Positions 3,137 to 23,226 of a DNA stretch of 26,277 bases are shown in pieces; position 1 is the first letter of the stretch; each line of letters starts with the position of its first letter. The notes under the pieces are model-generated. The model saw only the letters and a program-made list of their open reading frames with translations. It made no database searches and was not told the origin of the DNA. The translations under genes and the position numbers were made by a program. The stretch comes from a virus (Duplodnaviria; Caudoviricetes). The stretch is taken from positions 1-26,277 of IMG/VR virus record IMGVR_UViG_3300046751_000335; one strand, 5' to 3'.

Positions 3137-3273
3137 TGGCTAAACCAGCAAATCCAGCGTTATATGCAAGAGCAAAAGCTATTGTTAAGAAGAGGGTCAA
3201 CAAGTGGCCTTCTGCTTATGCGTCTGGTCAACTGGTACAACAGTATAAGAAAATGGGGGGCAAATACAAATGA
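3136..3273 (+). CDS. 45-aa basic protein, resembles N-terminal half of DUF5872 family (not in ORF track)
   Basis: Translated by hand: MAKPANPALYARAKAIVKKRVNKWPSAYASGQLVQQYKKMGGKYK. TAATG and ATGA coupling on the two sides. Confidence 0.8.
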   Translation: MAKPANPALYARAKAIVKKRVNKWPSAYASGQLVQQYKKMGGKYK

Positions 3274-3500
3274 GCCTCACCAAATGGTTTGATGAGAAAT
3301 GGGTAGATATATCCACAAAGGAGGGTGGTAAGCATCCTAAGTGTGGGCGTTCTAAAGGTGATGGTCGTAGTTATCCTAAATGCGTTCCGTCATCTAAAGC
3401 CTCATCTATGAGTGCAGCCGCAAAGAAGAAAGCGGTTGCTCGTAAACGTGCCACTAATCCTAGCGGTGGTGGTAAGAAACCAACTTATGCGAGGACGTAA
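3270..3500 (+). CDS. 76-aa basic protein, resembles C-terminal half of DUF5872-type proteins
   Basis: L.KWF.EKWVD...CGRS...YPKC.P motif. Coupled to both neighbours. Confidence 0.75.
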   Translation: MSLTKWFDEKWVDISTKEGGKHPKCGRSKGDGRSYPKCVPSSKASSMSAAAKKKAVARKRATNPSGGGKKPTYART

Positions 3501-3821: not shown

Positions 3822-4091
3822 ATGGCTAAGTCAGCGGCATGGCAACGTAAAGAGGGAAAAGACCCTAAGGGTGGACTTAATCGTAAAGGTCGTGCATCTT
3901 TGCGTAGACAAGGCAAGAATATCAAGCGTCCTGTATCTGCCAAGCAAGCTAAGAAGTCACCAAAAGCAGCCGCTAGACGTAGAAGTTTTTGTAAGCGGAT
4001 GATGGGTATGAAAAAGAAGCTTACAAGCAAAAAGACGGCTAATGACCCTAATAGCCGTATCAACAAAGCACTAAGGAAGTGGGATTGTTAA
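3822..4091 (+). CDS. Highly basic phage protein, DUF6321-like
   Basis: AAWQRKEGKDPKGGLN.KGRAS...RRRSFC.RM.GM....D..SRINKALRKWDC. GAGGG RBS upstream. Confidence 0.8.
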   Translation: MAKSAAWQRKEGKDPKGGLNRKGRASLRRQGKNIKRPVSAKQAKKSPKAAARRRSFCKRMMGMKKKLTSKKTANDPNSRINKALRKWDC

Positions 4092-5823: not shown

Positions 5824-6084
5824 ATGGCATTCGTAGACGCAGACTTCACCTTAGTCAATTATTCAGGCAACGGCTTTCACCTTTGGCACTACAAGTCAAC
5901 TGCTGATGCTCTGAATGCAATTGATGCCGCTAGCTACTTTGATTCAAAGTCTAGCGAAATCAATGTTGGCGATGTAATCTTTATCAATGCTTCTAATGGT
6001 TTTGGTATTGCTACTGTTGTTTCTAACTCTGGCGGTGTTGTCGATACAGGCGATATCGTGAGTATGACTACAGATAGTCGCTAA
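5824..6084 (+). CDS. Probable head decoration/cement protein
   Basis: 86 aa, beta-rich (W.Y.S.D......YF.....I.VGDVI). Strong RBS AAGGAGAGG. Immediately after the MCP. Confidence 0.6.
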   Translation: MAFVDADFTLVNYSGNGFHLWHYKSTADALNAIDAASYFDSKSSEINVGDVIFINASNGFGIATVVSNSGGVVDTGDIVSMTTDSR

Positions 6085-6212
6085 TGGCTAAAGCACCAAC
6101 AAAGAAGGCGGCAGAGAAATCTGCCCCTTCACCTTCTCCAAAGACGAAGAAAATCCGTAGTGGAACAGTAACCTTTGGAAAAGGCGTAACCTTAGGAAAG
6201 GGAGTTAAGTAA
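6084..6212 (+). CDS. 42-aa Lys/Pro-rich microprotein (not in ORF track)
   Basis: MAKAPTKKAAEKSAPSPSPKTKKIRSGTVTFGKGVTLGKGVK. TAATG coupling at both ends. Confidence 0.7.
   Translation: MAKAPTKKAAEKSAPSPSPKTKKIRSGTVTFGKGVTLGKGVK
6104..6130 (+). terminator. GC-rich hairpin with GAAA loop downstream of capsid genes (possible attenuator or mRNA stabiliser)
   Basis: GAAGG-c-GGCAGA GAAA TCTGCC-CCTTC: 11-bp stem with one bulge. No U-tract follows. Confidence 0.4.
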
Positions 6213-6328
6213 TGACCCCATGTAAATCATGCCCATATCCGGGCAAATGTAGGGCTGCTGGAAAATGTTTAAATCCTCCTAAGGGTGGCAAAACAATGGG
6301 CAATAAAAAATCAGGATACGGTAAGTAA
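6212..6328 (+). CDS. 38-aa basic four-cysteine microprotein (not in ORF track)
   Basis: MTPCKSCPYPGKCRAAGKCLNPPKGGKTMGNKKSGYGK. TAATG coupling at both ends, preceded by GGGAG. Confidence 0.7.
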   Translation: MTPCKSCPYPGKCRAAGKCLNPPKGGKTMGNKKSGYGK

Positions 6329-6942
6329 TGCCAACTACTCCATCCACAGATATTGAAGTTGCACAAAAGGCTATGGTTCTTATTGGGCTAGAGCCTTTGA
6401 CTTCATTTACAGATGCTACTGATGAAGCATTGGTTGCTAACACAATATATGAGGATGTGGTTACTGACTGTCTTGCACAGCACAACTGGAACTTTGCAAC
6501 AGGTCAGAAGATTATGTCTAGGCTTACTGCCGCACCTGTTGATAGATGGGAAGCGGCTTATGCCCTGCCTACTAATCCTCCTGTTGTACAAGCACTTACC
6601 GTTACAATAGACAACACCCCACAGCCATACGACATCTATGAGCGTTATGTTTATATTAATGCTGAAGTAGCTGATGAGGTTGTTCTGAACTATGTGTTTA
6701 GACCTGAAACTCAGTATTGGCCTCCTGCATTTACTATGTGGGTTATTTTTAGACTTGCATCTGTTTTGGCTTTATCTGTGACTAGAAAAGGCGATGTTGC
6801 CACTTCTTACACAAATCTGGCAGAAGCACAGTTTAGAAAAGCTAAGGCTAGAGACTCACAACAGGTAACAACACAAGGCATTCGCTTGAATCGTTACAGC
6901 AGAGCAAGAGTTGGTGCATACCAGCAAATAGAAGGCACATAA
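6328..6942 (+). CDS. Tail adaptor / tail tubular protein A (T7 gp11-like)
   Basis: AL/M..IG.EP..S.....EA.....Y.......L..H.WNFA, Y.LP, A...D.Q motifs. Size and position fit. Confidence 0.88.
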   Translation: MPTTPSTDIEVAQKAMVLIGLEPLTSFTDATDEALVANTIYEDVVTDCLAQHNWNFATGQKIMSRLTAAPVDRWEAAYALPTNPPVVQALTVTIDNTPQPYDIYERYVYINAEVADEVVLNYVFRPETQYWPPAFTMWVIFRLASVLALSVTRKGDVATSYTNLAEAQFRKAKARDSQQVTTQGIRLNRYSRARVGAYQQIEGT

Positions 6943-9311: not shown

Positions 9312-12300
9312 TGGCATTCCAAAGAACAAAAGGTAGAAGCGTATTTACTCAACCTACAGGTATGCCTGATTTATCTGGGTTCAAATCTGCCGCCAATGCA
9401 TATCAGCAACTTGGCCAAAGTGTATCTCAAATAGGGACTCAAATTCGCAATCGTGATTATAACGATGCAATACGTCAAGCTGAAATAGATGGAAAAACTG
9501 CTGGTGTTAAGTACACAAAAGATGAAAAAGGGCAATGGAAACTATCTCCTTTAATAAATCTTGACTATTCACAATCTGTTAAAAATCTTCCTAAAAGTGA
9601 TGCAGACAAAGTTTTGCAAGCTCACAGAAAAGCAGCAGTAGGTGCTTATGTAGCGGCGGCTGTAAATGATATAAAAAGTTCAGCAAATATTGCTTTGATA
9701 AAACATAAAAACGACCCTGACCAAGTTAGGGCTGAAATGAATGGTTATGCTGAGGGTCTTAGAGAGCAATTAAATGATGATTTTATATTTGCACAATTAT
9801 TGCCAAAGGTAGAATCTGCTTTTCTTTCTTCTGAAAATCAAGCATTTGCTCAACAGCAAAAGGAATCAGAACTTGTTGGTATAGCAAGTTTGCAAAAAAA
9901 CCTCTCTATAAACACAAAAGAATTAGGTAACTTAGCAGCAGTTGGTCCTGTAGAAGATGACGATTCTTCTGTTGAGGGCTTTGAAATGCGTGTTCAAGAG
10001 CTTCAGGATGAGAATGAAGTTATACTTGAAAATTTGCAAACCCTTGGTGTTAATCCTTTAAAAATAGAACAGTTAAGATCAAACCAGCAAAGCGCAATTG
10101 CAATTAGAGTTGGTCAGTCTGCGATTGAAAAAATCTTTACCCAAAATGGAGACTACGGTTACAGCAGTTCATTAGAAGCTATTGAAGAGATTGTTGATGA
10201 AGCCTACAGCAATCCTGACATAGATGAGGAGCAAATAAGAACGGCTTTGACAGTAACCGCAAACAGTTTGCAAAGATTAAAACAAGCTGAGTTAACTGAA
10301 GACTCAAAGGTGAGGGAGTCTGCTTACCAAAACATCATTTCAAGAGTTATAAATGGTGAAAGCGTTGTGGACATGATTTCAAATCAAGACCCAATTTTAA
10401 GCGTTCTTGAGCCTACACAAGTCTTTAGTGCATTACAGCAAAGTAAGGCATCAGACCAGCAAAGAATAAATGAGGAATTTAGCCCAGCTAAAGATTTAAT
10501 TTTAAATTGGGAAGATGTTATAGCCTCTGGCGACCCTGCTGGAGAGTCTCAAATGGTTTCTGCTTTTCTAAAAGTTAGAAAAATGCATGAAAACGGTCAA
10601 ATAAAGCCAGCAGAATTTTATGAAGTAAAAGCTCAATATCTTAAATATTTTGATACCAAAACAAGAAGCCCTCAAAGAACAGTAGTTTCTTCAACGCTAA
10701 AAAGAGAGTTGAGTGATTTTAGTTCATACCAAGTGCAGCCAGAAACTTTTATAAGAAAAATACCTGACTTAATTAAATCTGGCGTTATTGGAGATGGTGT
10801 AGGTGCTGGGTGGGCAACAGAAGACGCTTATCTTACCGATGTTTCAAAGTACAAAAAGGCTATGAAAAAAAGAAAAGACGAAATTGTTTTGGCACAAACT
10901 GCACAAAGCAAATTGTCTTTATCAATGACTTTGAGTGACAAAGAAAGCGAGGCTTATGTTAAGTCTTTTGGATATGACAAAGCAATAATGCCAGATGGAC
11001 AATCTGTTAAGATTGATTTGTTTTCTAATGATGAGTCTGTATTTCAAGCATCTGCTGACACAGCCGCATCATTTGCCTTAAACTCTCAAGGGCTACTTTT
11101 GCCTGAAGTTAAAGACCTTATTAAGCAAGCAAGGTATAGCGAAGAAGCCACAGATAGAGCTGTTAGAGTGATGGGTCAGACAATGGACATAATGGTTAGT
11201 CAAAGCGACAAGCCAAGATATGCCATAATGTATGACTTGTTTGAGAAAAACAACATTTCTGAAGAAGAAAGAACATACATGACGCTTGCTAACAGCGTTG
11301 GTATTTCTGTTGCTCAAGAGATTGTTAAGAACCCAGTTGATTACAATAGGGGCTTAAACAATTACTTTGGGACAAGAATTAAAGATGGAAACGCAGAAGA
11401 GCTTGCAGATGAGTTTTTGCAAGAAACATTCAGAAAAACACTTACGATGGATGTTCCTTTTGGAATAGGAAGTCCAGTTCTGATGACTCTAAGTTCTGCT
11501 TTAGGGATAAACGAAAATGACCCTCAAAGAGAGCGTTTTATACAAGAGTTTGCTGACACACACAACATATCTACTGACGATGTAAATAAGGTTGTTTTAA
11601 ATAATCCAGTTGTTAAAAACTCTATAAAAGACCTTTTTTACTCAAGGCTTTTACAGCACGGCAAGGCTGTAGCTCCAGAGCAGATTATGTTTGGTGTTTT
11701 AACAAGCATTGGAAAACGCTATGGGTTAGAGGAAAATGAGCGTACTGGAAAGATAGAAATGGTTGAATCTCCAGTTCTTACTCATGCTCAATCCACAGTT
11801 CCTATGGATGATGTGGCTGGAAGAAATGCTAAACCTGTAGTAAATTTAACTCACGAAATGATTGTTAATGATGTTGTTCAAGCTGTTAACTCAGTTCCGG
11901 GAATTGCAAATGAAAGCTTTTATAGTGCTTTGCAAGAAGTAGGAAGCGGCTCTAGTATAAAGTTTTTTGCTAACGACAATATGGGTGGAAAGCCTAGTTA
12001 CACGGTAGCTTTGTATGACAAGCTTGGTGTTCCATATATTCTGTCAGACAACTACAGATATGATTTTGCTTATTCTTCACAAAACGAAAGCTATAGAAAT
12101 GCTTTGCAAGAAGTAAAGTCTAGCAAAATAAAGAGGTTTTTATCTCTAGGCGGTTTGCTTGATAGAGGTTTGTTGCAAAACACATTTGAAAAATGGGAAG
12201 AAAGCAGACAGCCTTCTTCATTTGACCCATTGATAAAAAAGGTAAACGAGATTTACTTTGGTTTAGGTCAAAACTCAGATTACCTTAGAATGGATGAATC

Positions 12301-12379
12301 AATAGAGCCTTTCACTACAGAAGATATTGAGGAGCTTTGGAGATTAAAAGAAACTATACTCAGCCTTGGATTTAAATAA
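9311..12379 (+). CDS. Internal virion (ejection) protein, gp15-like
   Basis: 1022 aa, helical composition. Lies between the gp14-like and gp16-like genes with TAATG coupling. Confidence 0.7.
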   Translation: MAFQRTKGRSVFTQPTGMPDLSGFKSAANAYQQLGQSVSQIGTQIRNRDYNDAIRQAEIDGKTAGVKYTKDEKGQWKLSPLINLDYSQSVKNLPKSDADKVLQAHRKAAVGAYVAAAVNDIKSSANIALIKHKNDPDQVRAEMNGYAEGLREQLNDDFIFAQLLPKVESAFLSSENQAFAQQQKESELVGIASLQKNLSINTKELGNLAAVGPVEDDDSSVEGFEMRVQELQDENEVILENLQTLGVNPLKIEQLRSNQQSAIAIRVGQSAIEKIFTQNGDYGYSSSLEAIEEIVDEAYSNPDIDEEQIRTALTVTANSLQRLKQAELTEDSKVRESAYQNIISRVINGESVVDMISNQDPILSVLEPTQVFSALQQSKASDQQRINEEFSPAKDLILNWEDVIASGDPAGESQMVSAFLKVRKMHENGQIKPAEFYEVKAQYLKYFDTKTRSPQRTVVSSTLKRELSDFSSYQVQPETFIRKIPDLIKSGVIGDGVGAGWATEDAYLTDVSKYKKAMKKRKDEIVLAQTAQSKLSLSMTLSDKESEAYVKSFGYDKAIMPDGQSVKIDLFSNDESVFQASADTAASFALNSQGLLLPEVKDLIKQARYSEEATDRAVRVMGQTMDIMVSQSDKPRYAIMYDLFEKNNISEEERTYMTLANSVGISVAQEIVKNPVDYNRGLNNYFGTRIKDGNAEELADEFLQETFRKTLTMDVPFGIGSPVLMTLSSALGINENDPQRERFIQEFADTHNISTDDVNKVVLNNPVVKNSIKDLFYSRLLQHGKAVAPEQIMFGVLTSIGKRYGLEENERTGKIEMVESPVLTHAQSTVPMDDVAGRNAKPVVNLTHEMIVNDVVQAVNSVPGIANESFYSALQEVGSGSSIKFFANDNMGGKPSYTVALYDKLGVPYILSDNYRYDFAYSSQNESYRNALQEVKSSKIKRFLSLGGLLDRGLLQNTFEKWEESRQPSSFDPLIKKVNEIYFGLGQNSDYLRMDESIEPFTTEDIEELWRLKETILSLGFK

Positions 12380-15300
12380 TGAGCAAAGTAGACTGGAATT
12401 TTATACGTGAACTAGAGGGCTTTGAAACAACAGGATATGTTCCTGATGCTGGTGCTTCTGCTTCTGGGGTTACTATAGGAACTGGGTTTGACTTAGGTGC
12501 AAGGCAAGAGTCAGACCTAGATGGTCTTGATGATGACCTAAAAGAAGCATTAAAACCTTTTCTTGGCTTTAAAGGTGCTGAGGCACAGAAGATAGCAAAG
12601 AACTTAAATTTATCTGAAGAGCAAGCAATAACAGTAGATAACTTTGCTAAAACCAAAGAGTTAAGCAAGTTGAGAGAGAAGTGGCAAAATGCTACAAACA
12701 GTGATTTTGATGAGCTTTCTCCAGAGCAACAAACAGTTGTTGCATCTGTTGCCTTTCAGTACGGAGACTTAGAAAGCAGAACACCTAACTTTTGGAAGCA
12801 AGTGACAAGTGGTTCTTGGGAAGATGCTGTTGCTAACTTAGAGGACTTTGGAGACAGGTACTCTACCAGAAGGAATAAAGAAGCCAACCTTCTTTCTGGG
12901 GTGGTTTTAAAAAAAAAATTAGAAGCTGAAGGTGTTCCTTTACCTGAAGAGGGTAGCTTTGATGCTTTATTTAAGCCTTCTCAAATAGGTGTTGAGGATA
13001 GCTTTACAGTACCCAAAACCTTCAAACTTACCAAAGAGCAAAAGCAAGCTAGGGAAAGTGAGCTAAGAATAAAAAAGCTCATTGAAGAAAAGGGCATACC
13101 TAAAAACAATGTCTATCGTGATTTGCACAATAGAATGTATGGCTTTGAGTCTGATAGATTTGGTCAAAGAGTAGCTAGCAAATTAGACGAAAACTCTTTT
13201 GATTATCATCTTTACACCCCTACTCTTGGTCAGGCTTTTGAAGCGGCCATAGACCAATATCATGTAGGTCCAGCTTTGGGCAGGCTGATAAATTCATCTA
13301 TTGACCCTAAAATGAGGTCTGTTCCTGGGTATTCTCCATTTAAAGACAGAGAGCTTAAGCGTCTTGTTGGAGAGGATGGTTTGTTTTTCTTTAGGCATGT
13401 AGGTAGCCATGAGCAAGCCATGGAAAAATACAGACGTATGCAAGAAGACAGGCAAGACATGTATGTTCTTGACCAGTCTAATTATGGCGGTTTGCTTAGC
13501 GTTGGTGTTACGTTAGCGACTCCAACGATATTGTCCCCAATAGCACCAGTAAGAATTATGAGAGCTGGCCCTGTAAGGAGATTCTTTGGGGGTGCTGCTT
13601 TTACATATATGATGACTGCTGGGCAACAGGGCATTATTGAAACACAAAATGAAGCGAGAGATGCTAGCCATAGTGCGATGGCATTAACTGCTGCCGCTAT
13701 ACTTGGCGGTACTTTGACTGTTGCTTTTGGCAAGAACATGTCTGCTGTAAACCTAGCTCAAATGCGTCAATCAGATGAAGCTGTTGGAGAAGGGTACGAA
13801 AGATTGCCAAAGTCTGCTGGAGCAGGGGCTAATCCTGAAACAGTAAGAACAACTATGTATCGTCAGTTGGAGCAAGAGGGTTTAGAAGAAACTGGCATTG
13901 GAGTTGAAAAGCTAGGGTGGAATCCAGTTAATAGAATGCTTAATAGTGACAATGCTTTTGTTAGAAACTTAGCCGTAGGCATGGTTGATGTTGGCGGTGT
14001 TATGCAGAAAAAGGTTAGGTCTTTTGGAATAGAAATGGACCAATCTGTCGAAGCTACGTTTAGAACAACTTATTTGCCAAAATTGTTGGAGTCTATAAGA
14101 GTTTCTGATTCTGCTTATCTTAAATATAGAAACAGGGCTGTTCCAGAAAGCGATATTGGTCGTGCTGTTGAAATGTTAAAAATGCAAACAGGCGATATAT
14201 TTAGAAGAGCAGACAACACTCTTACAGAAGTTGAGTTTAGGCAACGTGTAGGCATGGCAATGGCTAGGGGTGACATAGATAAGGTTGGTGACTCTGCTTC
14301 ATCATTTGTTACTGAAGCGGCTCAAGCATATAGACCAGTGTTTAATTTTATTAAAGAAGAAGCTCAACAAGTAGGTTTATTTACCAAGCAACTAGAAAAA
14401 GAACTCAAAGTAGCCAGAGAGTCTGGAGACGCAAAAGCAATTCAGTCTATAGAAAGAGAGCTTGCAAGAATCCAAGAGTCTGGAGTTCTTATAAACACTG
14501 CTGAATCTTATGTCCCTAGAGTCTATAGGGTAGATAAAATTGAAGAAAACACTCCAAGATTTTTAAATATAGTAAGAACTTACTTGATTAAGAAAGGTGA
14601 GAGTGCATCTAACGCAGACAAAATGGCTGCTGAAATACTTGATTCGGTTACAAGAAGAAAGCCATTTGTTGATTTAGAAGGTGGGTATGACTCTCTCGAC
14701 TTTATTAAAAACGCATCTGGAGCGCAAAGAAGAAGCTTTGAGATACCCGATGAACTTATAGAAGAGTTTCTTGAAAGAGATATAGAAACCTTAATTAAGC
14801 ACCATGTAAAGACTATGGGAATGGATATTGAGCTTGCGAGAAGATACGGAAGCTTTGATATGTCTGACCAGATAGATGAAATTGCTAGAGAGTATGACAG
14901 ACTAATATCAGAAACATCAGACTTCGCTAAAAGGTCTGAATTAGCAAAGGCCAAAGAAGCAGACATAAGGGACATTCGTGGTCTAAGAGACAGACTGCGT
15001 GGAACTTATGGAGCTTCTAAAGACCCACACGCATTCTCAAGTCGTTTTGTTAGAACAATGAAGTCTTTCAATGTTTTAGTAGGAATGGGCAGTGCTATGG
15101 TTAGCTCTGTTCCTGACATAGCAAGGATTGTTATGGTTGAAGGTTTTTCTAATACCTATCATAAGGGCTTCAAGTCTATGTTTGACCAGCAAGCATATAC
15201 TATCAAGCAAATGAACAAGGGCGAATTAGACAAAGCGGCTATTGCTGTAGATGCTGTTCTTGGCTTAAGAGCGCATGCTATGTCAGATATTGGTGATTTG

Positions 15301-16254
15301 TTTGGTAATCGTTTTGCTGTGGAGCGTAGTTTGAATGACGCAACTGGCATGTTCTTTATGATGAACGGTTTGAACATATGGAATCAGGCAATCAAAGAAA
15401 TAGCTGGTAACGTCACCGTCTTAAGAATGACAGAAAGCATTATGAAAAAGGGTGGCTGGAAGTCTCTTTCTCAATCAGAAAAAGAAAAGCTTCTTAAGAA
15501 TGGTATAGGTGAAAATGACTATAGGATTATGAGAAAAGAGATTCGTAAGAACGGTCAAAAAGAAGGGAACGAATGGATTCCTAATACCGATGGCTGGTCT
15601 GACGAAGCTATGGCTCAACGTCTAAAGTTTAGAAATGCTTTAAATCAGAATGTAGAACGTACCATTATAACTCCCGGTGCTGGGGACAGGGCTTTATGGA
15701 CATCTACTGAAATTGGTTCTCTTATGACCCAGTTTAAATCATACGGTCAGGGAGCTATGGTTCGTATGCTCACTGCTGGTTTGCAAGAAAAAGATGGTGC
15801 ATTTTGGCAAGGTGCATTTTTGATTGTTGGATTGGCTGCTATGGTTAATGAAATAAAAAGAAGCCAATATGGTATAACAAGTGACGAAACTGCTGACCAA
15901 AAGCTTATGAATGCAATAGATAGAAGCGGTGTTTTGGGTTGGTTTATGGATGTAAACAACGCAATTGAAAAGGTTAGCGACTATAAAATAGGAATGCGCC
16001 CATTGTTAACAGAGCAACAGCAATATCCAGTTCATGCTGGTGCTAAAGTTGGGTCTGTTTTTGGCCCTGCTGGTAGCACAATGCTTAATGCAAGCAGCGT
16101 TATAGGCGATGTTTTGAACAACAACATTACTGATGACACGATGAGAGATATGAGATTTGTGTTCCCAAGTGGCAATTTGTTTTACTTAGACCCGATATAT
16201 GATGGGGCTTTTGGTGGTAATGTGAATAGACAGCAAACTAGCAATAGGGAATAG
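12379..16254 (+). CDS. Internal virion (ejection) protein, gp16-like, with N-terminal pesticin-like lysozyme domain
   Basis: N-terminal DW.FI.ELEG....GYVP......SGVTIGTGFDLG...QTV..SV.FQYG......P.FW...DFGD.Y..RR..EA is a pesticin/T4-lysozyme-like muramidase (aa ~1-172). C-terminal TPGAGD...QFKSY motif is typical of T7-like ejection proteins. Confidence 0.85.
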   Translation: MSKVDWNFIRELEGFETTGYVPDAGASASGVTIGTGFDLGARQESDLDGLDDDLKEALKPFLGFKGAEAQKIAKNLNLSEEQAITVDNFAKTKELSKLREKWQNATNSDFDELSPEQQTVVASVAFQYGDLESRTPNFWKQVTSGSWEDAVANLEDFGDRYSTRRNKEANLLSGVVLKKKLEAEGVPLPEEGSFDALFKPSQIGVEDSFTVPKTFKLTKEQKQARESELRIKKLIEEKGIPKNNVYRDLHNRMYGFESDRFGQRVASKLDENSFDYHLYTPTLGQAFEAAIDQYHVGPALGRLINSSIDPKMRSVPGYSPFKDRELKRLVGEDGLFFFRHVGSHEQAMEKYRRMQEDRQDMYVLDQSNYGGLLSVGVTLATPTILSPIAPVRIMRAGPVRRFFGGAAFTYMMTAGQQGIIETQNEARDASHSAMALTAAAILGGTLTVAFGKNMSAVNLAQMRQSDEAVGEGYERLPKSAGAGANPETVRTTMYRQLEQEGLEETGIGVEKLGWNPVNRMLNSDNAFVRNLAVGMVDVGGVMQKKVRSFGIEMDQSVEATFRTTYLPKLLESIRVSDSAYLKYRNRAVPESDIGRAVEMLKMQTGDIFRRADNTLTEVEFRQRVGMAMARGDIDKVGDSASSFVTEAAQAYRPVFNFIKEEAQQVGLFTKQLEKELKVARESGDAKAIQSIERELARIQESGVLINTAESYVPRVYRVDKIEENTPRFLNIVRTYLIKKGESASNADKMAAEILDSVTRRKPFVDLEGGYDSLDFIKNASGAQRRSFEIPDELIEEFLERDIETLIKHHVKTMGMDIELARRYGSFDMSDQIDEIAREYDRLISETSDFAKRSELAKAKEADIRDIRGLRDRLRGTYGASKDPHAFSSRFVRTMKSFNVLVGMGSAMVSSVPDIARIVMVEGFSNTYHKGFKSMFDQQAYTIKQMNKGELDKAAIAVDAVLGLRAHAMSDIGDLFGNRFAVERSLNDATGMFFMMNGLNIWNQAIKEIAGNVTVLRMTESIMKKGGWKSLSQSEKEKLLKNGIGENDYRIMRKEIRKNGQKEGNEWIPNTDGWSDEAMAQRLKFRNALNQNVERTIITPGAGDRALWTSTEIGSLMTQFKSYGQGAMVRMLTAGLQEKDGAFWQGAFLIVGLAAMVNEIKRSQYGITSDETADQKLMNAIDRSGVLGWFMDVNNAIEKVSDYKIGMRPLLTEQQQYPVHAGAKVGSVFGPAGSTMLNASSVIGDVLNNNITDDTMRDMRFVFPSGNLFYLDPIYDGAFGGNVNRQQTSNRE
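16218..16227 (+). promoter_or_regulatory. TAATGTGAAT motif ~35 bp upstream of tail fibre gene
   Basis: Exact copy of the 10-mer at 4841, directly abutting a TAGACA -35-like hexamer (16227-16232). Confidence 0.45.
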
Positions 16255-17986: not shown

Positions 17987-18844
17987 ATGGGTTATGTAGG
18001 TAATCAACAAGCAGAAGGCTTTGTCCAGCGTCCTACCAAGCAAGACTTAACAGGGGCAACTGGCGATACTCTTACGCTAACTCACGCTGTTAGCAAAGAA
18101 GAAGATATTGACCTCTATATCAACAATGTAAAACAAGAGCCAACGACTGCGTACACTGTAAATGATACAGCCGTAACGCTAACTGGCGATGTAGTTGCTT
18201 CTGATGATATCTATGTGGTATATAACTCTCTGGCATTGCAAACTGTAGTGCCGCCTGATGGTTCTATTAGCACAGATAAGCTGGCTAACAATGCAGTTAC
18301 TATGAGCAAGTTAGCTTCATCTGGAACGCTTCCAGCTTTAAATGGTTCTGCTTTAACAAATATCGGTGGTGCATTAACTGCCGTTAGCGAACAAACCGCA
18401 AGTGGCAGTAGCACGGTTGATTTTACAGGAATACCAAGTGGCGTGGAGTTAGTTAAATTCACTAGTTGGGGGCTTTCTTCTAATGCAACAGCAACTATTG
18501 ACATTCGAATAGGCGATAGCGGGGGATTTGAAACCACTGGCTATGCTAGAAATTCTCATTATGGAACAAATGCACTTGTTACTGGTGGTAGTTCTTTAAG
18601 TGGCGATTCTTGGAGAAACTATGCATGGGTTAACGCTGCGAGTGTTTTCTATTTTAGCGGTCAGCTAGTACACGCTGGAAGTAACAGATGGATAATGGAC
18701 GCTAGCATTTTTGTTTCTGATTATGACGGCTATTTTGTAACTATGATGGGGTACAAGGAACTGTCTGGCGAGTTGGACAGAATACAATTTTTTCCTACTG
18801 CTGGAACTTTTGATGCTGGCACTATTAGAATTATGTACGCATAG
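17987..18844 (+). CDS. Tail fibre/receptor-binding module protein (MxYxG-type N-terminus)
   Basis: N-terminal YVGN...INNVKQEP..AYTV, DGS..T.KLA repeat, and C-terminal beta domain (FTGIPS...ELDRI.....GTFDAG.I...Y). Confidence 0.75.
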   Translation: MGYVGNQQAEGFVQRPTKQDLTGATGDTLTLTHAVSKEEDIDLYINNVKQEPTTAYTVNDTAVTLTGDVVASDDIYVVYNSLALQTVVPPDGSISTDKLANNAVTMSKLASSGTLPALNGSALTNIGGALTAVSEQTASGSSTVDFTGIPSGVELVKFTSWGLSSNATATIDIRIGDSGGFETTGYARNSHYGTNALVTGGSSLSGDSWRNYAWVNAASVFYFSGQLVHAGSNRWIMDASIFVSDYDGYFVTMMGYKELSGELDRIQFFPTAGTFDAGTIRIMYA

Positions 18845-18853
18845 GAGGCTGTA

Positions 18854-19783
18854 ATGGCATTATCAAAAATACTACCAGCCTCTCAAGAGCAATATGCAGG
18901 GGCGAGAAATCTTATCATCAATGGTAACTTTGCTATTGACCAAAGAAACAGCGGTTCAAGTATAACACCTACCGATGGTCAGTTTAGTGCAGACAGATGG
19001 AAGTGTTCTTTAAGTCAAGCATCAAAATTTTCTGTAGAACAAGTAACAGATGCTCCAGTTGGTTTTCAAAACTCGCTAAAAATTACTAGCCTTTCTGCTT
19101 ACACCCCTGTTTCTTCTGATTACTTTCTTGTTCAGCAACAGCTAGAAGGATATACAGGCGCACATTTACTTTATGGAACGGCTGATGCAAAAACAGCAAC
19201 TTTGTCTTTCTATGTAAAGTCATCTTTAACAGGGACTTTTGGTGGTGCAATTAGAAACAGTAATGGATTCAACAGAACTTATCCTTTTGAGTACACAATT
19301 AACTCTGCAAACACTTGGGAAAGAAAAACCATAAAATTTGTTGGCGATACATCTGGCACTTATTTAACGACAAACGGTGCTGGGATTACAACAACCTTTA
19401 GCGTAGGTGCTGGGGCTGACTTTAAGTCAACAGCAAATGCTTGGGCGGCTAACAATGATATTGCAGGAAGTAATGCAACGGATGTTGTAGCAACCAATAG
19501 TGCGACATGGCAAATCACAGGCGTACAGCTAGAAGTAGGCGAGGCTACACCGTTTGAGCATCGTAGCTATGCAGATGAGTTGGCTAGGTGTTTACGGTAT
19601 TATCAAGACAGATACGTCTATATGTATGCTGGGAATCTTCCTCATGGCTACTTGTATAATATGAGGGCTACGCCAACTTTTAATAGTGGATACACAACTT
19701 TTGCCGCTACTGATGAGTATGTTTTGTATTACGCAACAAGTACTGCGGGGCAGTATAATATGAAAATGGATGCGGAGTTATAA
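18854..19783 (+). CDS. Tail fibre/receptor-binding protein with carbohydrate-binding-like domain
   Basis: AGGAGG RBS. RNLIING.F.I.QR...DRW ... TLSFYVKSS.TG ... W.ITGVQLEVG.ATPFEHRSY..EL.RC.RYY. Confidence 0.8.
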   Translation: MALSKILPASQEQYAGARNLIINGNFAIDQRNSGSSITPTDGQFSADRWKCSLSQASKFSVEQVTDAPVGFQNSLKITSLSAYTPVSSDYFLVQQQLEGYTGAHLLYGTADAKTATLSFYVKSSLTGTFGGAIRNSNGFNRTYPFEYTINSANTWERKTIKFVGDTSGTYLTTNGAGITTTFSVGAGADFKSTANAWAANNDIAGSNATDVVATNSATWQITGVQLEVGEATPFEHRSYADELARCLRYYQDRYVYMYAGNLPHGYLYNMRATPTFNSGYTTFAATDEYVLYYATSTAGQYNMKMDAEL

Positions 19784-19785
19784 AA

Positions 19786-19962
19786 ATGAATATTACATCA
19801 GCACAATATCAAAATAACCCTGTTTTTGGGGAAGCCGAACATAATATAGTTGTGATAATTGATGGTGAAACTTTGATTGTACCCCTTGACCCAGCCAACC
19901 GCCACTATGCCGCTATCCTAGAATGGGTAGCTGACGGCAACACAATACAGGATGCAGAATAA
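19786..19962 (+). CDS. 58-aa probable fibre assembly chaperone (not in ORF track)
   Basis: MNITSAQY...IDGE...VPLDPANRHYAAILEWVADGNTIQDAE. This motif commonly follows fibre genes. TAATG coupling to the next gene. Confidence 0.75.
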   Translation: MNITSAQYQNNPVFGEAEHNIVVIIDGETLIVPLDPANRHYAAILEWVADGNTIQDAE

Positions 19963-20774
19963 TGCCATACATAGGTAAAAATCCAGTAGGCGGTGGCTTT
20001 CATAAGCTAGACAACCTTACTGCTTCTGCTACAGACACCTACGCTCTTACGCTAGGGTCTGCGGCATACTACCCAGAGAGTGCTAACCAACTGCTAGTAT
20101 CTCTGAACGGTGTTATCCAAGCACCACAAGACAGCTTCACAGTGTCAGGTTCTGACCTAGTGTTTGATGACCCACTGACAGGCTCAGACAGTATCGACTT
20201 TGTTGTTGCGCTGGGTGATGTGCTGGCTGTTAAGACGGTTACTGATGGGGCTATTACAGCTAACAAGATTGGTACTGATGCCGTAACTACAGCTAAGATA
20301 CAGGACGGTGCTGTTACTGCGGCAAAGATTGATAGCTTGCCAACTGGTTCTGTGTTGCAAGTTGTAAATACAAAACTAACAACTTCATTTGATACTCAAA
20401 GCACAAGCTTTGTAGATGTTACAGGGTTATCAGCAACAATTACTCCATCATCTACGTCTAGTAAAATATTGGTTATGTTTAATGGCTTTTTATCTAACTA
20501 TGGAGCTAACAACTATACTTTTCTTAAAATATTAAGAGGCTCTACTGAAATAGACAGAAATTCGCAAATTGATTATCAGAATTTTAGCCACAGTGGCAGA
20601 AATGTAATGAACGTAATTTATGATTCTCCATCAACTACTTCTGCTGTAACGTACAAAATTCAAATTGCGGCTGAAAGCGCTAGCAATACTGCAAGAATAG
20701 GTGGCGGTGCGCAAGCTGGTACAACAACAGAAGTGCCAGACACAAACATAACACTAATGGAAATAGCAGGTTAG
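19962..20774 (+). CDS. Tail fibre/receptor-binding module protein (MxYIG-type N-terminus, GSVLQV...LMEIAG tip domain)
   Basis: N-terminus is paralogous to 17987-18844. DGA(I/V)TxxKI 10-aa repeats. C-terminal domain is paralogous to 20785-21288. Confidence 0.78.
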   Translation: MPYIGKNPVGGGFHKLDNLTASATDTYALTLGSAAYYPESANQLLVSLNGVIQAPQDSFTVSGSDLVFDDPLTGSDSIDFVVALGDVLAVKTVTDGAITANKIGTDAVTTAKIQDGAVTAAKIDSLPTGSVLQVVNTKLTTSFDTQSTSFVDVTGLSATITPSSTSSKILVMFNGFLSNYGANNYTFLKILRGSTEIDRNSQIDYQNFSHSGRNVMNVIYDSPSTTSAVTYKIQIAAESASNTARIGGGAQAGTTTEVPDTNITLMEIAG

Positions 20775-20784
20775 GGAGACTGAC

Positions 20785-21288
20785 ATGGCACTTATTAAAT
20801 TAAACAATCAGTCTCTGTCTGCTGTTACTAGCGCAGGGTTGCCCAGTGGTACTGTGTTGCAGGTTAAGTTTCTTTCTTTTGAAGACTTACTAACTAGGAC
20901 AGGCACTACCTATGCAGACATTTCAGGTTTTAGTCTTTCTATAACTCCTTCTTCTGCGAGTAATAAAATTTTAGTCACTGTTCAGTTGGCTCACGCCCAC
21001 AGCCCCGGCTCAAATACAATTTTGTACAGATTAATTAGAGGCAGTACAATCATCTCTGAAAATCCTAATATTGGAAATGTGGATGCTTTTATAGGTCATT
21101 ATTCTCACGGTGATGAAGGGCTTTACCACGCCAACAGACCCTTCTTAGACAGCCCAGCTACAACATCAGCAACCACATATAAACTTCAATGGAAAGTTGA
21201 TGCAGGAACTGGTTATCTTAATAGGCACACTGGCAATACGAATTATGGCGGTACTTCTAGCATGACACTAATGGAGATTGCAGGGTGA
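20785..21288 (+). CDS. Short fibre/receptor-binding module protein (MALxK leader + GTVLQV...LMEIAG domain)
   Basis: GGGAG RBS. Shares G.VLQV, D..G.S..ITPSS.S.KILV, DSP.TTSA.TYK.Q and TLMEIAG with the upstream gene. Confidence 0.78.
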   Translation: MALIKLNNQSLSAVTSAGLPSGTVLQVKFLSFEDLLTRTGTTYADISGFSLSITPSSASNKILVTVQLAHAHSPGSNTILYRLIRGSTIISENPNIGNVDAFIGHYSHGDEGLYHANRPFLDSPATTSATTYKLQWKVDAGTGYLNRHTGNTNYGGTSSMTLMEIAG

Positions 21289-21431: not shown

Positions 21432-21626
21432 ATGAACGATGATTTTGCAAAACGTTTCAAGAACGTTAGACCCCAAACTAAACCTATTGGTTTTGGTGAA
21501 TATTTTAACAGTGTAACATCTGGCGTTAGTAAGACTGTTAAGAAGATGGGAAATTTTTTTTCGTCTTCTAAGGCAAAAGCTGATGACACTAGCTATCCTA
21601 ATATGCAGAAGTTAAAGCGAAGGTAG
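21432..21626 (+). CDS. Small basic hypothetical protein
   Basis: Abuts both neighbours and fills the operon gap. Confidence 0.55.
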   Translation: MNDDFAKRFKNVRPQTKPIGFGEYFNSVTSGVSKTVKKMGNFFSSSKAKADDTSYPNMQKLKRR

Positions 21627-22686: not shown

Positions 22687-22885
22687 ACTTACTTTTGTTT
22701 TATTGCTGGTAATGGGTGGTGAGAAGGTAGAGTACACGCCTTATAAATCCTTGTCTGAGTGTTTGTCTGTACGCAGAAAGATTAAACGTAACGTAGGCCA
22801 CACCAATAACTTTGACCAGAAGTGGTCATGCAAAGAGTTAAAGGTTAAAGTTAAGGACGGCAACATATTGGAGTTTGTAGAATGA
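22679..22885 (+). CDS. Small exported protein with two Cys
   Basis: Hydrophobic N-terminus, SECL...R.IKR and WSCK. Overlaps both neighbours. Confidence 0.6.
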   Translation: MVELTFVLLLVMGGEKVEYTPYKSLSECLSVRRKIKRNVGHTNNFDQKWSCKELKVKVKDGNILEFVE

Positions 22886-23226
22886 TTCAGTTACTAGGTG
22901 TTGTAGGCAATCTTGCTACTACATTTTTAGAAGGCAAGGTTGAGAAAGAAAAAGCCAAGTCTGAGATTATGAAGACTGCTGCACAGCATGATAGCAAGTG
23001 GGAGCTAATCATGGCTGAGTCTACTAAGTCTAGCTGGAAAGACGAAATAATAACAATAGCTGTACTTGCTCCTTGTGTACTTACATTCATTCCGGGCATG
23101 GAGGATGTAGTGAAGCAAGGGTTTGATAGGCTGAATGAACTACCTGATTGGTATCAAAACATATTATATGTGACGATACTTGCTGGTTTAGGCTTAAAAG
23201 GGTTGGATAGATTTAAGCGGAAGTAG
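22882..23226 (+). CDS. Holin, 3TM (GTA holin-like)
   Basis: WE........SWKDE.......P....FIP.....V..GF..L..LPDWY........A..GL.G. GGAG RBS. Confidence 0.8.
   Translation: MIQLLGVVGNLATTFLEGKVEKEKAKSEIMKTAAQHDSKWELIMAESTKSSWKDEIITIAVLAPCVLTFIPGMEDVVKQGFDRLNELPDWYQNILYVTILAGLGLKGLDRFKRK

Follow-up and report, generated by a model that had tools for sequence, protein, structure and literature searches.

The window analysed here is the whole of virus record IMGVR_UViG_3300046751_000335 (G000; Duplodnaviria, Caudoviricetes), which comprises 26,277 nucleotides (nt) at 74% completeness. This report concerns one of its genes (12379..16254, plus strand), an open reading frame (ORF) of 1291 amino acids (aa) that encodes a large ejection protein (an internal virion protein) bearing a muramidase domain at its N terminus, and a run of ten adenines within that gene (A10; 12909..12918, plus strand), which is a predicted slippage site. 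The gene is the third of an internal-virion block located 3′ of the tail tube genes and 5′ of a tail fibre gene. Its body, aa 280-1280 (13216..16218, plus strand), matches phrog_342, annotated as 'internal virion protein with endolysin domain' (E 1.4e-65), and matches to phrog_418, phrog_376 and phrog_394 lie upstream of the gene. By family match and gene order the predicted 1291-aa product is a podovirus internal virion (ejection) protein. The same body is also found without a lytic domain in relatives that carry a stand-alone endolysin.

Muramidase domain and A10 run

The N-terminal domain (aa 1-172; 12379..12894, plus strand) resembles pesticin and T4 lysozyme. Pfam Pesticin (PF16754) matches aa 3-148 (E 2.6e-38, 131.8 bits against a cut-off of 25.8), phrog_24780 covers aa 1-174, pesticin PDB chains align to aa 12-172 (E 1.3e-11), and a structure model of the domain has a predicted local distance difference test (pLDDT) value of 92, with its final helix at 162-171. 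Together they place the domain boundary at about aa 172, in agreement with the initial annotation of this DNA, which was made from the sequence alone. E13, T32 and D38 align with the essential E178, T201 and D207 of pesticin, and all three are invariant in 14 homologues. We assign aa 1-172 as a pesticin-type muramidase with an intact catalytic triad and predicted activity. The sequence match and the E/T/D triad are shared with the pesticin activity domain as described in the available part of PMC3390615; unlike pesticin, the protein considered here is phage-encoded, has no receptor or translocation domains and is fused to an ejection protein.

A10 is the longest homopolymer in the window, where the runner-up is T8 at 21554, and the sole run of at least nine A or T in the record. 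An in-register T TTA AAA heptamer (12906..12912, plus strand) overlaps it, and both shifted frames close shortly after it. The −1 frame, reached after one extra A, ends at TGA (12927..12929, plus strand), 8 nt past the run, with a predicted product of 183 aa ending KKKIRS (~20.3 kDa). The +1 frame, reached by losing one A or gaining two, ends at TAG (12920..12922, plus strand), 1 nt past the run, with a predicted product of 180-181 aa ending KKN. The initial annotation had given all of these coordinates, had ranked A10 first among the homopolymers and had deduced a lysozyme-only product of ~180 aa, and in each respect it holds within the window, the predicted products being 183 aa (−1) and 180 aa (+1). 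It had also named the TTTAAA heptamer as a possible slippage signal. This was rejected since the heptamer is not conserved in the family; the conserved element is the uninterrupted A run.

A Shine-Dalgarno (SD)-like GGGGTGG (12898..12904, plus strand; top 2% in this gene, not conserved) lies just 5′ of the run, and no plus-strand terminator was found near it. A third-order Markov model expects 0.16 runs of at least ten A per window, and the 7337 window codons contain 27 in-register X XXY YYZ heptamers, with T TTA AAA recurring at 10057. By themselves the A10 and heptamer of the window are weak evidence, and the significance of the run comes from its conservation in homologues rather than from window features alone. 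An assembly artefact, a concern raised in the initial annotation, is ruled out: A10 stands in an intact ORF in 4/4 near-identical contigs from other assemblies, and it is kept while the codons flanking it differ synonymously among them.

Conservation and recurrence of the run

Loci were drawn from several sets of matches (30/30; 80 of 467; 75 distinct from 76 matches; 80 of 299) and from public phage records, together with 79 distinct bacterial loci from the best 80 of 202 matches. Taking the best match per locus and excluding matches that ended before residue 160 left 281 rows, 202 of them viral, including 167 N-terminal fusions that represent 110 distinct sequences. A run of A8-A10 is present within 50 codons of the RRxxEA motif in 109 of these 110 fusions, and in 38 of 39 clusters at 85% identity. 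In every fusion with the run (109/109) a −1 stop lies 1-8 nt past it, against a background probability of 0.32, and a +1 stop lies 1-31 nt past it, against a background probability of 0.56 for at most 30 nt. Homologues use AAA within the run, and AAG solely as the run-ending codon. Persistence of the run and of the out-of-frame stops, and the avoidance of AAG, had been named in the initial annotation as tests of its proposal, and they came out in its favour. The rest of the same genes has a single run of at least eight A in 127 kb, and AAA AAA encodes 167 of 436 other Lys-Lys pairs in them.

The run occurs in two phage lineages, the window's own, with an ejection body of ~1100-1400 aa, and T7-like pelagiphages, in which the partner is ~450-560 aa and which include the cultured phages Bylgja, HTVC120P, HTVC309P and HTVC134P. 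It is found 4, 5, 6, 8, 9, 10, 11, 13, 15 or 44 codons past the domain; the window-lineage runs occupy phases 2 and 3, all three phases being represented only across both lineages. At five loci, in a set found via the C-terminal part, the same ejection protein begins with a second, GH24-like lysozyme (PHROG endolysin, E 2.7e-8; Atlas lead PF00959 at 0.92). A9 is present in 5/5 of these loci; the −1 stop, computed for four of them, follows after 3 nt in three and after 12 nt in the fourth. No annotated cultured relative of this second lysozyme family was found.

Genes that lack the N-terminal fusion served as controls. Among ejection genes without a lytic domain, 13/14 have no run of at least eight A (the other has A8 at codon 317), and five further such genes have no run of seven. 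Bacterial N-terminal fusions have at most A5 (5/5), and stand-alone or C-terminal copies of the domain have at most A6 in 106/109, the remaining three being the inverted form described below.

The domain also occurs at the C terminus of 450-840-aa proteins (L376:4024-6537, L383, L406, L408, L363, L366 and L026:61-2130), the gene lying immediately 5′ of a holin-like gene in L376, L363 and L026. No conserved internal ATG precedes the domain in these C-terminal fusions, so it may be freed there by some other route. In L396 a stand-alone pesticin-type gene (5899-6543) separates a 1258-aa gene from the membrane-gene cassette, and the pesticin-type domain clusters with the T7-like pelagiphage fusions in a quick, weakly supported tree. 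In L020, a 148-kb phage record, a stand-alone pesticin-type gene is flanked outside its ORF by T11 upstream and A11 downstream (9955, 10731).

Inverted and split forms

In the inverted form, represented by L081 and L082, the zero frame ends two codons past A9 to give a lysozyme of 210 aa; the ejection part follows in the −1 frame, where ~145 codons pass without an ATG. Two further DNA records share this arrangement, A9 is present in 4/4 inverted records, and the 14 proteins of the matching cluster all have the same ending. The inverted lineage is stable, and for a full-length protein one A would have to be added. L425, a pattern match for this form, proved to be unrelated sequence and was dropped. 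In the split form (L055, L057 and L072) a genuine stop follows the lysozyme, the ejection gene starts two codons on and there is no run. Taken together, the inverted and split forms indicate that a free lysozyme is a selected product of the locus.

A few database proteins (P0001, P0003, P0009, P0028 and P0090) terminate at the run after a change of frame, which may reflect either sequencing error in the homopolymer or variation of its length in the DNA.

Endolysins and holins

Thirty-three genomes were reached via the loci, 16 with pesticin-headed and two with second-lysozyme-headed ejection genes, and 15 others. An A run of at least nine is present in 18/18 fusion genomes, and is the sole such run in 17 of them, versus 0/15 of the others. 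A stand-alone GH24 or M15 lysin over the cut-off shows the opposite distribution, being present in 0/18 fusion genomes versus 14/15 others (8 GH24, 6 M15), and four weak GH24 matches in fusion genomes map inside the fused domain itself. Among genomes at least 90% complete (n=14) the split is 8 versus 6 (Fisher 3e-4, a value that overstates independence, the genomes being related). No other lytic enzyme was found with Pfam in 141 ORFs of 75-420 aa from four fusion genomes, with PHROGs in 113 selected ORFs from seven, or with Pfam and PHROGs among 30 window ORFs, and 6/6 fusion-bearing pelagiphage records have no gp3.5 amidase, GH24 lysozyme or SLT. Within this sample, fused lysozymes and stand-alone endolysins are mutually exclusive; a dedicated endolysin elsewhere, which the initial annotation had regarded as the finding that would count against it, was found neither in near-complete fusion genomes nor among the 30 window ORFs.

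The window has a holin-like membrane gene (22882..23226, plus strand; phrog_2524 match, putative holin function), which here and in the window type generally is followed at once by a convergent gene. Homologues of this gene (best 80 of 308) mostly adjoin a GH24 lysozyme or an M15-like peptidase. In G003 a GTA_holin_3TM/PHROG holin takes the place of phrog_2524, and only there is the gene annotated as a holin. No hydrophobic segment, signal peptide or membrane anchor is predicted in the short product, which would therefore need a holin. The short product is a candidate for a canonical holin-dependent endolysin: it is predicted to be soluble, a holin-like gene is present in the same genome and no other lysin was found.

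Mechanism of the proposed slippage

We propose that the ejection gene probably yields two proteins through programmed RNA-polymerase slippage at A10. Unslipped mRNA would be translated into the ejection protein of 1291 aa, and cleavage of the cell wall during entry is the predicted task of its N-terminal muramidase. Where RNA polymerase adds or drops an A, a stop would be reached within 1-3 codons, giving a free 180-183-aa muramidase that is predicted to serve as a holin-dependent endolysin. The suggestion in the initial annotation that recoding yields a free lytic enzyme from the ejection gene is supported by the comparisons above. We consider it very probable that the short product is made, by whatever mechanism, and, given recoding, there is good reason to expect that the slip is transcriptional.

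In the window's lineage the A run resembles T. thermophilus dnaX-type slippage sites in that at least nine A lie in the coding region irrespective of phase, with near stops in both frames. Run length differs with the polymerase. It is 9-10 in 70/71 sequences of the window's lineage, where 9/9 genomes of the window type (8/9 of them at least 90% complete) yielded no T7-like RNA polymerase, and 8 in 28/36 of the T7-like lineage, despite the higher A+T content there. According to PMC6260861, the A runs on which slippage occurs are shorter for T7 polymerase than for E. coli polymerase, insertion being the chief outcome, and the 8-A runs of the T7-like lineage fit this. Alternatively, −1 ribosomal frameshifting at A_AAA_AAA or A_AAA_AAG, of the kind used by E. 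coli dnaX and copA, or ribosome sliding could give the same two products, and we regard this as possible, if distinctly the less probable route. The minimal heptameric forms A6G and A7, though sufficient for tandem tRNA slippage, are never seen among the 109 runs, although AAG makes up ~43% of Lys codons (median) in the window lineage, and the codon past the heptamer is constrained to lengthen the run. There is no conserved 5′ SD (top 6% in just 4/23 representatives) and no conserved 3′ RNA structure (top 5% in 1/23 representatives; window 3′ fold z = −0.82). Such absent stimulators lower the case for a ribosomal shift and do not exclude it, since some phage shifts need none. The +1 stops are near as well, and ribosome sliding is weak on A9-A10 (PMC4363877). 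Conservation of run length rather than of a heptamer, the lack of stimulators, the stops in both frames and the match of length to polymerase together favour transcriptional slippage over −1 ribosomal frameshifting.

Several points weigh against slippage by RNA polymerase as the source of an endolysin. A ribosomal shift would be served by the in-register A_AAA_AAN inside every run (any run of at least eight A holds one), by a −1 stop that is tighter (at most 8 nt in 109/109) than the +1 stop, as −1 frameshifting also predicts, by the inverted lineage, which requires the −1 frame, and by the SD-like element 5′ of the run in the window; moreover, transcriptional and ribosomal slips may both occur at one site (PMC5009743, available part). 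On A runs of up to 8, E. coli polymerase shows little slippage, and it prefers T (PMC6260861); the polymerase of the host here may differ from it. In AT-rich pelagiphages A8 is not rare, Bylgja having seven other runs of at least eight A, and the metagenomic T7-like contigs were assigned by similarity to Bylgja structural genes, the polymerase itself not being seen on them. The sequences compared are related, and the counts and Fisher values overstate their independence; the quick tree is weakly supported and poorly resolved and was not used for counting origins. L375, the lone exception among the 110 fusions, has no run at the domain boundary; its A11 (6887) lies ~130 codons further on and is followed by a −1 stop after 2 nt. 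In HTVC031P an amidase of the gp3.5 type coexists with a stand-alone pesticin-type gene that comes after the terminase (L037:6245-6670, 39753-40292), which indicates that a free domain need not be the main endolysin. Finally, a divergent endolysin could escape Pfam and PHROGs, and the window record is 74% complete.

Explanations that dispense with slippage, or with lysis, are given little weight. A Lys-Lys(-Lys) linker selected as a flexible or protease-cut hinge, with the lysozyme cleaved off or acting within the full-length protein, is very improbable: Lys pairs or triplets do stand at the hinge in all cases and a full-length protein could in principle lyse, yet selection at the protein level would leave unexplained why the coding is all AAA, why flanking codons supply further A residues, why out-of-frame stops lie where they do (background 0.32), why such runs are avoided elsewhere and why the frames are offset at the run in the inverted lineage. 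Marginally less probable still is a contingency tract at the level of DNA (phase variation, replication slippage) or a hot spot of sequencing error. Such a tract would fit the existence of the inverted form and of the few database proteins that terminate there out of frame; its length is nevertheless fixed within lineages (A10 in 4/4 close relatives, A9 in 4/4 inverted records), truncation of the ejection protein in DNA should kill progeny, and the loss of stand-alone endolysins would go unexplained. We give as little weight to the view that recoding is real and the short muramidase is a second virion enzyme or a device for setting an expression ratio, with lysis by an unrecognised enzyme. Many small ORFs without a family, and the free pesticin-type gene beside an amidase in HTVC031P, allow for it, while none of the sampled genomes combines the fusion with a GH24, M15 or amidase endolysin and the holin-adjacent slot is empty.

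The locus L015, a relative of L375, has a second run (A10) ~100 codons past the first (7255 and 7554), with a near −1 stop; L375 retains only the later run (A11).

Relation to known systems

Lytic domains are found in internal virion proteins such as those of PHROG 342 and gp16 of phage T7, which share with the window gene the layout of an ejection protein joined to a peptidoglycan hydrolase. Phages with this type of domain normally keep a separate endolysin, unlike the window type; TL-2011b has a separate endolysin and no run of at least eight A or T in the 27 kb examined.

The closest parallels in recoding are the dnaX genes. The T. thermophilus dnaX tau/gamma system, as presented in the available portions of PMC1088944 and PMC5009743, shares a nine-A run within one ORF, early termination in either shifted frame and a truncated N-terminal product that has a function of its own. 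Here, by contrast, the gene encodes a phage structural protein, one product would serve at the start of the infection cycle and the other at its end, the run varies in position and accompanies more than one kind of domain, and slippage is a prediction from sequence. With E. coli dnaX gamma and the copA chaperone (PMC5009743, in the part available) the locus shares a shift followed by a stop that frees an N-terminal domain encoded separately elsewhere, whereas those systems use −1 ribosomal frameshifting and no conserved heptamer, SD or 3′ structure is seen here. Phage tail chaperone G/GT and capsid or tail extension frameshifts likewise produce two products in a set ratio from one structural gene; the same portion of PMC5009743 describes those as ribosomal and lengthening, whereas the event proposed here is truncating and would supply a lysis enzyme. 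The logic resembles that of dnaX and copA, and what would set the locus apart is the use of recoding to obtain a phage exit enzyme from an entry protein.

No earlier report of an entry and an exit enzyme from one gene was found in the literature searched, although pelagiphage supplements may bear on this novelty; the available portions of the 2016 recoding review, PMC4066793, PMC10386132 and PMC8163748 hold nothing on an exit enzyme derived from an entry protein. For HTVC120P-group pelagiphages a missing lysozyme has been noted and a pesticin homologue proposed for lysis (bioRxiv 10.1101/672428; see 10.1101/410191; both in their available parts), and the accessible text of 10.1101/672428 makes no mention of the run, of recoding or of the freeing of a virion-fused domain.

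On a wider view, widespread marine podoviruses may have swapped the endolysin gene for slippage in the ejection gene, with more than one origin or transfer, a run length tuned to the polymerase and a polarity that can be flipped, a scenario on which we find the balance even. If so, multiple origin would be reflected in two phage lineages and two lysozyme families, 9-10 A would suit the host enzyme and 8 a T7-like enzyme, and flipped polarity would make an essential virion protein dependent on slippage. Slippage in the ejection gene would explain host lysis by marine phages, including the cultured SAR11 phages noted without a lysozyme gene, and would add a class of recoding in which a single gene gives an entry and an exit enzyme. 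Gene callers miss truncating slippage, and comparative evidence for it is hard to obtain (PMC1088944); here its signs are conservation of the run, gene exclusion and the inverted and split forms, which offers a simple rule for spotting hidden endolysins in phage genomes.

Other features of the window

The window contains a podovirus structural module of portal, scaffold, capsid, two tail tube and three internal virion genes and tail fibres, followed 3′ of the tail fibres by a small membrane-gene cassette and then by Sak, YqaJ and HTH genes. The closest cultured capsid is that of Pelagibacter phage Hodr, with 47% identity. The portal gene of G002 is in two overlapping ORFs (L112:9672-11226), possibly through an assembly error. 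Two small basic genes (3270-3500 and 3822-4091; DUF5872-like and DUF6321) lie between portal and scaffold in the window, and small basic ORFs resembling them adjoin the holin-like gene in other phages. Short tail-fibre-like genes whose domains are related to one another (phrog_18673, phrog_6942 and phrog_4492) form a row at 17987-21288, and the T8 at 21554-21561 falls within a 64-codon ORF (21432-21626) of the membrane-gene cassette, L003 having a T8 too.

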